Positions 12,001-18,000 of a stretch of 52,974 nucleotides of DNA are shown here, piece after piece. Position 1 is the first letter of the stretch. The number at the start of each line of letters is the position of its first letter. Source of the stretch: a virus (taxonomy: Duplodnaviria > Heunggongvirae > Uroviricota > Caudoviricetes); IMG/VR virus record IMGVR_UViG_2802429234_000005, positions 1-52,974 of that record; one strand, written 5' to 3'. The position numbers were made by a program.

Positions 12001-15000
12001 GGCAGGTCTGCCGCCAGTGCATGGAGCGTTGTCGGGCGGGTGAAACATGGCCTCCTGACCTGGCAGAGTTTGTGGCGTTGATTTCGGAAAGTGGGGCAAA
12101 TCCGTTTGGTTTGACTGTGGATGCCGTGATGGAGGAGTACCGACGCTGGCGCAACGAGTCCTGGCGATACGACGGAAGCGATAAATACCCGTGGTCTCAG
12201 CCTGTGCTGTATCACATTTGCCTCGAGATGCGGGCAAAAGGGATTGAGCGTCAGATGACCGAAGGGGAGTTAAAACGACTTGCAGAACGGCAACTGGCGA
12301 AATGGGCAAAACAAGTTGGTGACGGCCTCAGTGTTCCGCCAGTCCGGCGGCAACTGACTGCACCAGAACGCCCGTCGGGGCCAACTCCAATTGAGTTGCT
12401 GAAACAGGAATACGAACGCCGGAAAGCGGCTGGTTTTGTTTGAGTTGAGAAGTAATTTTTACCGGGAGGAAATTTTAATGGAGACCGTTTTTGACGCACT
12501 GAAAGCAATGGGAAAAGCCACGTCGGTAGAACTGGCAGCGCGACTTGATATCAGTCGTGAAGAAGTGCTGAACGAGCTGTGGGAACTGAAAAAGGCTGGC
12601 TTCGTTGATAAAAGCGTATACACCTGGCGTGTGGCTGATAACAACGTTCAGCAGGAACAGCCAGCACAGACAGTGCTGCCGGAAGAAACCACTACGGCAA
12701 CAGTGACGAAAATTTCGGAGAGCGATTTAACTTCGACGATTGAACAACGTGGCCCACAAACGGCGGATGAACTGGCTACGCTGTTCGGTACAACATCCCG
12801 CAAAGTGGCTTCAACGCTGGCAATGGCAATCAGCAAAGGTCGTCTGATTCGCGTTAATCAGAACGGTAAATTTCGTTACTGCATGCCGGGCGGTAATTTA
12901 CCAGCAGAGCCGAAAGTTAAATCGATAGCGGAAACCCATGGTAAAGCCTTTCCTCAACCAGCAGGTGTTGCGTTACCGGTGCAGGAAGCTGCAACACAGG
13001 AAGATATTAAAACAGAAACTGTAGCGGACATTGTGCAGTCGTTGCCATCGTACACCGAAACACAAGCGGATGACCTGGTTTTGCCATCGCTGCATATGGC
13101 AAATCGCGAACTGCGTCGGGCGAAAAATCATGTCCAGAAGTGGGAGCGTATCTGCGCCGCGCTGCGGGAGTTGAACAGGCACAGGGATATTGTTCGACAG
13201 ATTACTGATTTTTCCCGCAGTGTTGCATCGGAAAAGTGATTGCCGGAGGCGCTTATGGCAAAAGTATTTACACAAGAAGAGCGGGAAAAAATTAAAGGGC
13301 TGGTTGTTGAACTTGTACGTCTGAGCGGTCGCGAGACGTTACGACAACTGGAAGCTAAGACAGGTGCGACAAGATATTTTATGAGCGTTCTCGCCAGAGA
13401 GCTGGTTGCCAGTGGCGATGTATACAATTCTGGCTACGGGTTATTTCCGTCTGAACAGGCTCGTAAGGACTGGCAAAACGCCCGTAAAAAACTATCAAGA
13501 GCAAAGGTGAAGAAACCGGTTGTGGTTGATCCTGACCTTATCTGCTCATTACCAGACGGAGAAATACGCCGCTACGACAGGCGTATGAACATAATCTGTC
13601 GCGAGTGCAGGAAAAGTGAAGCTATGCAGCGTGTGCTGGCGTTTTATCAGGGGAAATTTCAGGAGGTGGTGCGGTGAGTGAATCAAAATGCAGGGTTAAT
13701 GGCAATCAGATAGAACCGTGTGCGGCATTGGCAAAAGCACTTGAATATGGAAATCCAACATTTAAGAGCAAAGGTATATTTATCCCGGGGCGTGTGAACA
13801 TAAACACTGGCGAGCCAGGCTTAGACATTGCTCAAATTCACTCTGGTCAATATGTCGGTCGTGGCGTTGCAATGTGTTTTTGCCCGTTCTGTGGTGAAAG
13901 TCTGAAAACGTGGGAGAACAGAAATGAATGAAATTAAAGAAATACCAGTAATACGTGATGAATATGGCTGCTGGACGCATCCTGAATATGAAAAATTCTG
14001 TGATGGTAGGGAATATATTTCAACGGAAGAGTTTAACGCCTGGATGGCGGAAAATAATCTTCAATGCGTCCTCTGCTTCAGAGACGAAGGATATGCTGAC
14101 CTTGATGCGTGTGATGCTGATATTTCTGCATGGGAACCGGAACGACCAGAGGGCGATGGATGGTTTATTGGTTCGATACATGACACCGAAGATGGCCCGG
14201 TTTGTGTCTGGTTGCGAAATAAGGCTGAAGCATAAAGGTGATAAACCACCTGATAACAAAACACTGAAAATTTAAATCAGAAGTGGTTTTTATTAAATCC
14301 TTAACCGGAGGGGTTCCTGCACCCTCAATACATCAGGAGGTCGCCCGATAGGGCGGCAATAAAAATGACAGAATTAACTAAAGAATGGGTGTTGGGGTGA
14401 GTAATGCTGATATCGCCTTATCTGGTCTGGTTTCATGGGGCAGCATTAATAGTTATGCCGCATGTCCTGATGGCTGGCAACGTCATCCCGGCACCAAATC
14501 GCCATACCGGTATTGCAGCGGCACGACGTGCAGCAAAGAAACGCAGGAAAGCAAAACGATGAAAAACCGTAAAGCAAAAATTCTTTTGACCTGTAGAAAC
14601 GCTCGCGGCGTCCAGTAATGGTTAAAACTCAGTAACCGCAGAATGGGATTGTTCACAAACACAACTGATATTGTGATGTGTTCCCTCAACAAGCCCAGCG
14701 CGGCACAAAACCGCTGGAGAAATCACGGTTCTCAGCAAATTAAATGGGAGGGATATGACTACATAAAAAGGGGCGAATGCCCCTTAGATCATCATTAGCT
14801 GCTCATCGCTGGCGGTACTTGTCTTTAGGAATTTCTAGACGATAATATCCACCATCTTTCTTAAAAATACGTTTACCACCACGAGTAATGTACGGGGTAA
14901 ACACAATCACAACTTCTTCGCCTTTGGCGTTCATTTCTGTAGTCATGGTTTGATTTCCTGTAAATCTCACCTTTACAAGTCATCACCAAAACGCCTACAC

Positions 15001-18000
15001 TAAAGGTGTGAATCATTAAGTAGGCGGGTAGTGATACTCTAAGAGCGGTGAGTAAGCTCTCAGAATCGTTATCCTTATCGGCAAAAGAGTTGGCGCTCTT
15101 TTGCCGATTAAATGATCTGGTTTTCACGAAATTTCCTCCACAAGATCCCTGCGACTTCATGGCTAACTTTGAAGTTAACAGCAATTTCTTTTGGGGTTTT
15201 GATCATCCCTTTCTCTTGCGGATCAACCAGAAACCAAGCGGCAAATTCGTTTGCTTGCCATTCTGCGTCCTCTCTAAAGCCATGATTGGAGGATGTCTGT
15301 GAGAAAGCAAATTCAGGCGTAACATCCGCATGAAGAATTAAATGCCCTAATTCGTGAGCCAGAGTAAAACGATCACGTGGTACGCCGTTTGCTGCATTAA
15401 TGTAAGTGTCTTTACGTACGTATAACTCGCCTATTGCAGGTCTTGCCTTAGCATACTCATGCGGCATTTCATGAATTTCACAAATTTCCATCGAAATTGC
15501 ACCGGTATCGTTTAGCCTGTCTAATAACCTAACAATGTCAATTGAAGGATCCGATGTCGCTGGGAGATACTGCCTTGCTTTTTGGCGCGCGGCGGCAGCA
15601 ACTTTCCATATGGTTTGAGGAGCAATAAAATTTACTTTATTACACAGTAATCGCTTTTGTTTCATCTTTGACTTTGACCTTACATTTTTTTTATCTTCTC
15701 AAGCCAGTCATTTGCTTCACTTTCTGGAAGCTCTTTATACTTACGCGCAAAGGTGACGAACAATTCTCGGTGCTTGTCAGAAGTATTCTTAAAATCTTCT
15801 TTATGAACTGGTTGAGATACGTCCACAAGACATTGAAAATCATCTCTGCTGATGACTGTGTCTGCATAAACGTTCATGAATTTGTCTACAAAATCAGCAG
15901 ATATTGAACGCTTACCTAATTCAATTGCAGAAAGTTGAGCGACACTCACACCAAGTTTTTCTGCCATGTCTTTCAATATCTGATCTTTATCAATACGGAT
16001 TTTCCGTAAGAACCTACCAAGAGCTGTAACTTGCATTGTGACCTCCTAATCAAGGGAGGTAGTCTTTTACTACCATTGAAGATACATTAAACCATTATCA
16101 GATAATTAGTCAACAAAAATTGTAGAATGGATTTGTGTGACCTGATTTTGGTTAAAGAGAACATCGCATGTTATTGCAATCTATTAATTTAAAAATTCTA
16201 GATTTATCGATAGGTTGCGAGCGAATTTTGGTGCAAAGATAAAATGTTGGAAACAGCTAAAAGGTTAAGTAGAATGGCTGCGGGTGCTTGAGGCTGTCTG
16301 CCTCGGGCATGCCACTGTAAGGCAGACAGAGAAAAGCCCCAGTTAACATTACGCGTCCGGCAAGACGCTTAACATTAATCTGAGGCCAATTTCATGCTTT
16401 GCACATGTAGGTTAGCCTCTTACGCGCCGGAAGGCAAGGAGAAGCAGGCTATGAAGCAGCAAAAGGCGATGTTAATCGCCCTGATCGTCATCTGTTTAAC
16501 CGTCATAGTGACGGCACTGGTAACGAGGAAAGACCTCTGCGAGGTACGAATCCGAACCGGCCAGACGGAGGTCGCTGTCTTCACAGCTTACGAATCTGAG
16601 GAGTAAGAGACTCGGCGGGGAGAAATCCCCGCCACCTCTGATGTGTCAGGTATCCTCAACGCACCCGCACTTAACCCGCTTCGGCGGGTTTTGTTTTTCA
16701 TGAATAAGGGATTAATAATTTTAACTGAAATTATATTGCCTTGTTGTCCGAATGGTTAGTTAATTTTCGATATTGTTGTATTTGTCGTATTTGTCGTATT
16801 TGTTTTTATTTTCGGCTTTATCTTTTGCGATTGCTTCGAAATAAAGATTAATTAGAATTCATCCGTTTTGAGTAGCGCGCAGGGAGAAGATGGATGGAAC
16901 CCTGAAAAGGGGAGAGCTATTTATTTGGAAGGATTCTGAAGATGAAAATCGAAGAATTGCATGAATTGTTTAGTGAAAATGGCCTCTATGCTGTGCGCGT
17001 TGAGAATGGAACTATTGTCAGTCACTGCCGCATTAAATGTTTACAATCCCAGCAAAGGAAGAGCGGTGCTGTGTTAATTTATTTTGTGGATGGACTTATG
17101 GTGGACGGTTTTATTTTACGTGAAGATGAATTTGTCACATCATTACAGGCTTTGAAAGAGATAGGACTTAAGGCTGGATTTTTTGCTTTTGAGACTGAGT
17201 GAATTCATCTACAATTCAGCACAGGGTTGACCCCCTGCTGAGTAACACCGTGCCACCGGAGAAAACCGATGGCACATATACAACTGGTCAAACAAACTTC
17301 TTCTGGTTTACTTCTCCCGGCGACGCCGGAGAGTTGCGATTTTCTGCATCAAATCAAAATAGGCGAGTGGATACACGCTGACTTTAAGCGTATTCGTAAC
17401 TACGCATTCCACAAGCGTTTTTTCAAACTCCTGCAACTCGGATTCGATTACTGGACTCCGGTCGGTGGGGCGATCACGCCTCGCGAACGAGAACTGGTGT
17501 CCGGTTTCGTTGATTACCTGTGCGAATCAGTAGGTCGGGAACATACGCCAGCTCTGAGCGAAGCCGCAGAGCAATATCTGAATACAGTTGCGACACGCAG
17601 AACCCAGGATACGGCATTACTCAAGTCATTTGACGCCTTCCGTGAATGGGTAACCATTCAGGCCGGATTTTACACTGAGCATTTTTATCCGGACGGTAAC
17701 CGCGGGCGTCGGGCGAAATCCATCGCGTTTGCGAATATGGACGAAACCGAGTTTCAGCAGGTTTATAAATCTGTACTGAATGTGCTGTGGAACTGGATTC
17801 TGTTCCGTAAATTTTCCTCTCCGGAACAAGTCGAAAATGTGGCTGCACAGCTGCTGGAGTTTGCGTGATGGCAGATTTACGTAAAGCGGCGCGGGGCCAG
17901 ATGTGTCAGGTCAGAATTCCTGGCTACTGCAATCACAATCCCGAAACTTCCGTGCTGGCGCATTACAGACTGGCGGGGACGTGTGGAACAGCGACAAAGC

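Follow-up and report, generated by a model that had tools for sequence, protein, structure and literature searches.

Why does a prophage that already has its own immunity region carry a second pair of regulator and protease genes, and what does this pair control? Pairs of a helix-turn-helix (HTH) gene and an ImmA/IrrE-type peptidase gene are among the commonest unexplained pairs in phages and mobile elements, and the output that they regulate is mostly unknown. We examined such a pair in a caudovirus genome (record IMGVR_UViG_2802429234_000005), of which the whole analysed stretch of 52,974 nucleotides (nt) is called the window here; all positions are in window numbering. The pair belongs to a minus-strand cassette that comprises, from ~16127 down to ~14765, the HTH gene, the peptidase gene, a hairpin at the peptidase stop codon, a spacer, a small open reading frame (ORF), and a terminator. 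We found that this segment of ~1.36 kb is an autonomous, horizontally mobile 'moron' cassette, and that its presumed output is fixed by conservation: a protein of 47 amino acids (aa), preceded by a structured leader that is itself conserved and for which an antisense RNA is predicted. We propose that the cassette is not part of core immunity but a switch, gated by the protease and buffered by the antisense RNA, that controls a small effector, a reading that we judge equally likely to hold or to fail.

Organization of the cassette

The HTH gene (15680..16036, minus strand) encodes a protein of 118 aa that matches the Pfam families HTH_3 (E=1.2e-7) and HTH_31 (E=1.3e-7). The peptidase gene (15108..15665, minus strand; 185 aa) begins 14 nt downstream of the HTH gene. 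The small ORF (14803..14946, minus strand) has 144 nt, or 47 aa counted from ATG, and follows a Shine-Dalgarno sequence, AGGAAA, at 14959..14954 on the same strand. The cassette ends at an intrinsic terminator (14785..14768, minus strand), in which a 7-bp stem is followed by TTTTTAT, and a terminator is equivalently placed in three other loci (L002, L003, and L005).

The original prediction, made from the sequence alone, had described a minus-strand unit of an XRE-family HTH gene, a DUF955-like peptidase gene with an HEXXH motif 14 nt further on, and a gene for a 47-aa basic protein with a good ribosome-binding site (RBS), ending at a terminator. All of these elements were recovered at or beside the positions it gave, and each gene assignment agreed with our results: HTH_3 for the 118-aa protein, Pfam Peptidase_M78 (E=3.5e-13) for the 185-aa protein, and, for the 47-aa protein, a net charge of ~+5, the AGGAAA sequence, and selection on its coding sequence. 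A perfect hairpin had also been placed right after the peptidase stop codon. The hairpin is present; its stem has 13 bp, not the 11 reported, and overlaps the stop codon.

Distribution and genomic contexts

No cassette DNA was found in GenBank phages (50,697 records), in which only the neighbouring mok/sok segment matched, from ~16264 on. Among 5,426 complete E. coli genomes, three carry the cassette, at 99.3% identity. The copy in E. coli CFSAN029787 is located in the nin region of a different lambdoid prophage, with hokD again adjacent.

Related loci were gathered by searches from the small protein and from the peptidase. By ORF and hidden Markov model analysis, the order of HTH gene, peptidase gene, and small ORF was found in 35 of the 51 loci with a small-protein homologue, so that the gene-neighbourhood comparison called for in the original prediction revealed a conserved co-occurrence of the three genes. 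Within the peptidase family, the small ORF accompanies the HTH-peptidase pair in all intact loci examined, with the order kept. The family reaches as far as Shewanella waksmanii (39% peptidase identity) and Hydrogenophaga (25%), and includes coliphage LLS, where the small ORF is unannotated.

The surroundings of the cassette change from locus to locus. It lies in the nin region in the window and in L001. In prophages of Providencia and others (L005, L007, and L020-L024), where its strand is opposite to that of the late genes, it separates Q from the lysis genes or from a methylase gene. L002 has it beside an integrase gene, and L003 beside an S24 peptidase gene and a gene for a 1,495-aa protein. 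In L017 it is found among insertion sequence (IS) elements, adjoining a Septu-like PDC-M62 pair, and in L025 it is flanked by a GajB-like gene on one side and a type IIG restriction-modification gene on the other. Three copies (L011, L017, and L025) are located in non-prophage islands. No divergent partner gene is conserved across the loci; the neighbours are hok/sok, a holin gene, a methylase gene, an IS element, an S24 peptidase gene, or none. The three genes travel as one unit through unrelated contexts. The unit is also rare and looks autoregulated, and these properties favour an accessory module over core immunity, which is what the original prediction had expected.

In E. coli E423 (L059, NZ_CM173464.1), an opposite-strand pair of a RelE/ParE toxin gene and an HTH antitoxin gene was found in the equivalent slot of a related prophage (4585-5266), flanked by small early genes and DUF968/nin genes. 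This position seems to be a hot spot of morons of the toxin-antitoxin type. We tried to define exact insertion boundaries from cassette-free prophages; the region was too mosaic, and the comparison gave the hot-spot picture only.

The small ORF encodes a conserved microprotein

Compared with six related cassettes, the small ORF has a ratio of nonsynonymous to synonymous substitution rates (dN/dS) of 0.03-0.10, with dS at least 0.7 and synonymous sites near saturation. Since dN/dS is this low at such a dS, the small ORF is a real protein-coding gene under strong purifying selection. RefSeq annotates the same 144-nt ORF in E. coli CFSAN029787, and the exact protein occurs on 95 contigs, where it is named 'hypothetical' every time.

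The protein is basic and beta-rich to all-beta, and has no hydrophobic segment. A profile search of 1.84 billion representative proteins collected 78 clusters of small proteins, mostly of 40-60 aa, with the consensus ..V.IFTPYITR.GKRIY...GG.FRLEIP..KYR. No match to the small protein was found in Pfam, NCBIfam, PADLOC, PDB sequences, or known folds, and the only signals were sub-threshold, to DUF6296 (Pfam, E=0.008) and to two PHROGs of unknown function. The small protein is thus a member of a new, unannotated family of all-beta microproteins.

Some relatives of the protein stand outside the cassette. Plasmid pKOr019_3 (L058, NZ_CP091668.1) carries an unannotated solo homologue at 801-926 (..YIFRPYITVKGKRITRPNGGMFKIPI..), after which an 81-aa Cys-rich ORF comes next. 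About 30 plasmids are like pKOr019_3; they are ColE1-type mobilisable plasmids of 4.6-9 kb from E. coli, Salmonella, and Klebsiella. The tblastn E-values of the plasmid homologues are weak (0.1-0.6), yet the motif is clear. Distant homologues were also located directly downstream of genes for CAP12/Pycsar-type TIR-domain, DndB-like, and Fic proteins (L039, 2650-3834; L043, 2643-3917; L048, 2732-3823), and P0025 is a fusion protein that joins the microprotein to the C-terminal part of a sequence like the protein encoded upstream in L035. These neighbours and the P0025 fusion hint at further conflict systems with the same small protein.

Certain family members have CxxC/CxC pairs at both ends, as in L011 from Shewanella waksmanii (6792-6935) and L050 (837-1049); the Shewanella example reads CPKC...CNNC. 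The beta mini-fold may derive from a zinc ribbon whose zinc ligands were lost in the enterobacterial members.

The HTH protein and the peptidase

Among the PADLOC models, capH matches the HTH protein weakly but over its full length (E=2.5e-6, residues 4-117). The C-terminal half is conserved among the homologues and contains the motifs SQP..K and FARKYKEL. Judged from its sequence, the protein appears to have the layout of DdrO, CapH, and ImmR, that is, a DNA-binding domain followed by a putative helical dimerisation region.

The peptidase matched Pfam Peptidase_M78 (PF06114) above the curated cut-off. The active-site residues H104-E105-x-x-H108 and E135 are invariant in 12 homologues. The match to PADLOC capP (E=4e-13) is restricted to profile positions 56-113 of 242, and many PADLOC RmrA models match the peptidase locally, at residues ~88-152 only, which is the catalytic core. 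The AlphaFold2 model is confident (pLDDT 87) and ends two helices past the catalytic domain. The best folds that this model found in the PDB were the M. tuberculosis transcriptional regulator 6cz6/6cyy, IrrE (3dti), PprI bound to single-stranded DNA (ssDNA) (8sln), and CapP (7t5t), with E-values from 4e-4 to 2e-3 and TM-scores of ~0.5. According to the CapP and IrrE papers, ssDNA is sensed through the GAF domain and the cysteine-switch loop. Neither a GAF domain nor a cysteine-switch loop was found in the sequence or the AlphaFold2 model of the 185-aa peptidase, whose size is closest to that of ImmA. The predicted protein is a clear member of the ImmA/IrrE M78 (COG2856) family, with an intact active site.

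Promoter, operator, and leader of the operon

We predicted the operon promoter, P_HTH, at 16084..16113 on the minus strand, with a -35 hexamer TTGACT (16113..16108), an 18-nt spacer, and a -10 hexamer TAATGT (16089..16084). Among seven cassettes with saturated synonymous sites, TTGACx and TAxxxT are kept, and the sequence between them is variable. P_HTH scores under the threshold of a simple promoter scan.

A candidate operator for the HTH protein, the palindrome TTCTACAA-N3-TTGTTGAC (16109..16127, minus strand), overlaps the -35 hexamer. Its half-sites are kept in two groups of cassettes, the window-like ones and those of Providencia, some of the latter with two copies, and the recognition helices of the HTH proteins are near-identical between the two groups. 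A search allowing up to two mismatches found the operator as a single copy in the 53-kb window, with no further copies in the spacer or the rest of the prophage. Because the palindrome is conserved over the -35 hexamer and is unique in the window, the HTH protein likely autoregulates its operon from a candidate operator on its own promoter and has no other predicted target in the prophage.

The 5' leader of the HTH gene (16041..16074, minus strand) contains two overlapping hairpins. The first is formed by GGTAGTA..ACTACC (16074-16058), and the second by ACCTCC..GGAGGT (16060-16041), which sequesters the Shine-Dalgarno sequence and was also picked up by a scan of the plus strand. In the seven cassettes the stems are invariant and the loops variable. 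We had considered GGTAGTA-N4-ACTACC as an operator; its half-sites are spaced differently from cassette to cassette, so we rejected this reading and take the element for an RNA hairpin.

A structured spacer and a predicted antisense RNA

The distance from the peptidase stop codon to the ATG of the small ORF is ~160 nt. The stop-codon hairpin (15077-15089 / 15096-15108) has a perfect stem and a 6-nt loop. Together with the structured spacer that forms the leader of the small ORF (14947..15076, minus strand), it makes up four consecutive hairpins, the last of which (14979-14957) includes the first two G of the small-ORF Shine-Dalgarno sequence. In seven cassettes, spacer identity is 0.74-0.86, while the genes on either side reach only 0.38-0.66 at their third codon positions. 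The sense strand of the spacer folds with z=-6.9 against shuffled controls, and compensatory changes were found in 7 of 47 predicted pairs. The spacer is therefore a highly structured functional element under purifying selection, which the original prediction had not flagged.

Most lineages examined have a hairpin at the peptidase stop codon, with unrelated stem sequences. An A-run before the hairpin, found in most lineages, is a U-tract for the opposite-strand direction, and A.C mismatches of the hairpin on the sense strand are G.U pairs on the antisense strand. Given this U-tract polarity and G.U pattern, the hairpin resembles a terminator for an opposite-strand RNA (~65-120 nt) more than it does a feature of the peptidase mRNA.

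A predicted antisense promoter, P_as (14972..15001, plus strand), consists of TTTACA (14972-14977), N18, and TACACT (14996-15001); it is located 25-55 nt upstream of the small ORF and directed at the hairpin. In alignable lineages, the conserved positions of the opposite strand near the small ORF read TTxAC(A/T)-N17/18-TAxxxT. Unalignable lineages have antisense sites in the same place that are often stronger, such as TTGACA-16-TATACT (LLS lineage) or TTGACT-16-CATAAT (L025). Across nine lineages, the best sigma-70-like sites on the antisense strand beat composition-matched shuffles (Fisher p=2.4e-5, which is indicative only, as the promoter asymmetry had been noticed before the test), and the same test on the same lineages revealed no enrichment of sense-strand promoters in the spacer (p=0.94).

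The predicted antisense RNA (15008..15116, plus strand, ends approximate) is ~100 nt long and complementary to the leader of the small ORF. In four lineages it is predicted to start 61-63 nt upstream of the small-ORF ATG. The candidate RNA folds at -40.1 kcal/mol (z=-4.9), and an Rfam scan with E up to 1 assigned it to no family, the sole match being the neighbouring sok. We also evaluated pairing in trans between this RNA and the translation start of the small ORF, which was no better than for shuffled sequences (z ~0) in a duplex routine that we judged poorly suited. Taken together, these signals suggest that the spacer probably encodes an opposite-strand RNA of ~100 nt.

Two further observations concern the hairpins of other lineages. 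An identical 6-nt loop, TTGCAG, is carried on unrelated stems in the spacers of L029/L032/L053 and in L002/L034. The spacer of the L029 lineage has two hairpins, and the small ORF there seemingly has its own RBS-hiding hairpin (CCCTCC..GGAGG).

The host prophage and the neighbouring loci

The main repressor of the prophage is a CI-like protein of 135 aa (9786..10193, minus strand; HTH_3/Phage_CI_repr). Near it are a YdaT-like gene (10490-10912, plus strand) and a SieB superinfection-exclusion gene (8346-8957, plus strand). The CI-like, YdaT-type immunity region (9786-10912) is separate from the cassette, and the original prediction was right in assuming that the prophage has a switch of its own. 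No S24 self-cleavage domain was found in the 135-aa main repressor, which therefore needs an external inducer.

Directly beside the cassette and divergent from it is a complete type I hok/mok/sok locus (16282-16606, plus strand), with a Hok-like ORF at 16394..16606 and an Rfam match to sok of 113.6 bits (E=1.8e-26). Homology to other lambdoid phages resumes at this locus, which marks the right edge of the cassette. We considered hok/sok as the regulated cargo and rejected it, since hok/sok is common in lambdoid phages without the cassette. Downstream of hok, the segment 16591-16694 (plus strand) gave sub-threshold Rfam matches to rsmX (23 bits) and isrK (19 bits) and has a clean terminator at 16673-16690; these matches could be fortuitous or could reflect a small RNA of the prophage that has diverged.

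Proposed mechanism and alternative explanations

In the switch that we propose, a dimer of the HTH protein on the palindrome over its own -35 hexamer would hold the operon nearly silent. A stress signal would switch on the peptidase, and the HTH protein would be cut between its DNA-binding and dimerisation parts. The trigger could be DNA damage or ssDNA, by analogy with ImmA, IrrE, and CapP, or else phage infection. Derepressed transcription would then read past the stop-codon hairpin into the small ORF; read-through is proposed because the spacer has no sense promoter and, in this lineage, no sense U-tract follows the hairpin. From the opposite strand, a constitutive promoter is predicted to make the ~100-nt RNA that ends at the hairpin. 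This antisense RNA or convergent transcription, together with the RBS-hiding leader hairpin (14979-14957), would damp leaky expression, so that the small protein would be made only above a threshold. We infer these regulatory steps from ImmR/ImmA, DdrO/IrrE, and CapH/CapP.

What the effector does is a matter of speculation. The small protein may be the effector, probably one that binds nucleic acid and arrests the cell or the infecting phage, and the cassette would then probably serve in defence or resemble a toxin-antitoxin module, much like a RosmerTA system split into three components. We favour such an effector because the cassette sits in a moron hot spot and has two non-prophage copies in defence islands, and because the parallel with RosmerTA and the systems predicted in 2009 is joined here by a tight, multi-layer control of the effector.

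Several observations weigh against the proposed switch and its defence role. The peptidase is without the GAF domain by which IrrE and CapP sense ssDNA. The small protein also occurs solo, without the HTH protein and peptidase, on small plasmids, on phage contigs, and on one gut contig, which argues against a lethal toxin that depends on the cassette repressor; nor is it hydrophobic, unlike most type I toxins. The U-tract of the hairpin in the window is poor in both directions, and spacer hairpins 2 and 3 suit the sense strand slightly better. In L029/L032/L053 a bidirectional terminator is followed by what seems to be a separate promoter for the small gene, so not every lineage depends on read-through. 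Finally, the link to defence islands is based on two loci.

The alternative that survives best is an anti-repressor switch, in which the small protein would bind and inactivate the main repressor and the HTH-peptidase pair would provide the DNA-damage input. The main repressor is without an S24 domain and needs an external inducer, yet the cassette is also found in prophages with an S24-domain repressor (L006). It resides mostly in temperate phages, but has copies in the non-prophage islands L011, L017, and L025 and occupies at least three different positions among lambdoid genomes. The succession of regulators, predicted spacer antisense RNA, and downstream effector resembles the arc-sar-ant layout of P22 immI. 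Against this explanation, the cassette is rare and distant homologues of the small protein are found on small plasmids and beside TIR, DndB, and Fic genes. We regard this explanation as unlikely. An anti-repressor-type switch had been named among the accessory functions in the original prediction, and the missing S24 domain leaves that reading standing at low probability.

A type I toxin-antitoxin system behind a regulator pair seems quite improbable to us. Here the antisense RNA would be the main restraint on a toxin, and the HTH-peptidase pair would only add stress-inducible transcription. The protein is small enough to be such a toxin, but has no hydrophobic segment. An opposite-strand promoter and terminator are predicted beside the small ORF, whose structured leader partly hides the RBS; however, the predicted RNA misses the RBS, with its 5' end ~62 nt upstream of the ATG, and is no more complementary to the region of the translation start than shuffled sequences are (z ~0, by the poorly suited duplex routine mentioned above). 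Solo copies reside on small mobilisable plasmids and the next gene along is the type I system hok/sok, but the small ORF of L030 was transferred together with just ~55 nt from its upstream side, which do not include the antisense promoter region.

The least probable explanation, which we hold to be marginal, treats the small ORF as a bystander of a two-protein module, which would be an Xre antitoxin paired with a COG2856 toxin or else a regulator of the CapH/CapP type acting on neighbours such as hok/sok: Xre-COG2856 pairs are indeed abundant as two-gene units (PMC2701414), the top PADLOC matches are capH and capP, and the divergent neighbour here is hok/mok/sok, but the small ORF is under strong purifying selection and is present in every intact family locus examined, down to ~25-39% peptidase identity, many lambdoid phages have hok/sok without the cassette, the divergent neighbours change between loci, and the operator motif occurs nowhere else in the window.

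Returning to the protease-gated switch, we may extend it to a broader proposal, which we put forward tentatively and consider rather doubtful. The cassette would be the founding example of an undescribed four-part conflict system, made up of a split ImmR/ImmA-like sensor, a microprotein effector of ~45 aa, and an opposite-strand small RNA that sets the threshold, with the effector acting on nucleic acid or on some core machinery of the host so that the phage or the cell stops growing. If this is true, the solo microproteins near TIR, DndB, and Fic genes and on small plasmids mark further unrecognised systems. In any case, a system of ~1.4 kb opens up the activation of ImmA-type peptidases without a GAF domain, threshold switching by protease and antisense RNA, and the role of a widespread phage microprotein. 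Experiments are practical because coliphage LLS, which carries a relative of the cassette, is an isolated phage whose deposit gives E. coli K12 as the host, and because CFSAN029787 has the copy at 99.3% identity.

Comparison with known systems

Three-component Xre-COG2856-toxin systems were predicted by Makarova et al. 2009 (PMC2701414), and ImmA-domain proteins are the antitoxins of RosmerTA defence systems (PMC10440598). In both, a zinc peptidase and an HTH domain are coupled to a variable, often unannotated toxin gene, in whose place the cassette has its putative effector gene, and like the cassette they are found in phages and defence islands. However, RmrA is one fused protein of ~360-400 aa, whereas the HTH protein and peptidase of the cassette are encoded by separate genes. 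Assignment to RosmerTA fails since there is no fused RmrA; the small protein matches no known RmrT or PADLOC model. Assignment to the RelE/PIN three-component toxin-antitoxin systems of Makarova 2009 fails since the small protein is not RelE or PIN.

CapP cleaves CapH upon ssDNA sensing (Lau et al. 2022, bioRxiv 10.1101/2022.04.27.489752; Calloji et al. 2026, bioRxiv 10.64898/2026.05.16.725639). The peptidase domain, an HTH-like linker, and the C-terminal GAF domain of CapP form an ssDNA groove, and a cysteine-switch loop is often present. The best matches of the cassette in the defence library are capH and capP, 7t5t is among the best folds, and the logic proposed here, in which a repressor-cleaving peptidase would switch on dangerous cargo, is the same. 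In contrast to CapP, the cassette peptidase has neither the GAF domain nor the cysteine-switch loop. The capH-capP genes are upstream of and divergent from their cargo operon, whereas the only conserved cargo of the cassette is downstream on the same strand. With the GAF domain missing and no divergent cargo operon, assignment to CapH/CapP fails.

IrrE (PprI) and DdrO of Deinococcus share with the cassette the M78 fold and an XRE-type protein, a repressor with a C-terminal dimerisation domain in Deinococcus and a putative one here, which the peptidase cuts in Deinococcus and is proposed to cut here. Unlike the cassette genes, irrE and ddrO are chromosomal, unlinked, and control a regulon, IrrE has HTH and GAF domains, and no small downstream effector is present.

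Antisense control of effectors has precedents. In immI of P22, a small antisense RNA, sar, located between arc and ant, limits the synthesis of the anti-repressor, and Gifsy prophages have small anti-repressors controlled by LexA. The type I systems tisB/istR-1 and symE/symR are SOS-controlled, with stress-inducible transcription through LexA. P22 immI, tisB/istR-1, and symE/symR are like the cassette in combining a repressor-controlled effector with an opposite-strand small RNA in the leader or intercistronic region, which in the cassette is predicted. The cassette differs from them in that there is no sequence relationship, the predicted RNA misses the RBS, and the effector is neither of the Ant type nor a membrane peptide.

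ImmR/ImmA of ICEBs1 and of phage phi105 in Bacillus subtilis comes closest. There, too, an XRE repressor gene is followed by an M78 peptidase gene in one operon, and the short single-unit peptidase of ~170-185 aa cleaves the repressor on DNA damage; the 118-aa and 185-aa proteins of the cassette, encoded 14 nt apart, fit ImmR/ImmA best. In ICEBs1, int is co-transcribed downstream as the third gene. The cassette likewise has a third gene downstream, which encodes the 47-aa protein instead of an integrase. Unlike ImmR/ImmA, the cassette pair is not the main immunity switch of its element, because the prophage has its own CI/Cro-type region, the candidate operator is unique in the window, and the position and the host element change. 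Nor does the cassette have a conserved divergent target promoter, and its spacer contains a predicted antisense promoter. Thus, the HTH-peptidase pair is built like ImmR/ImmA, and the new elements are a third gene from an unannotated microprotein family and a conserved structured spacer with a predicted opposite-strand RNA.

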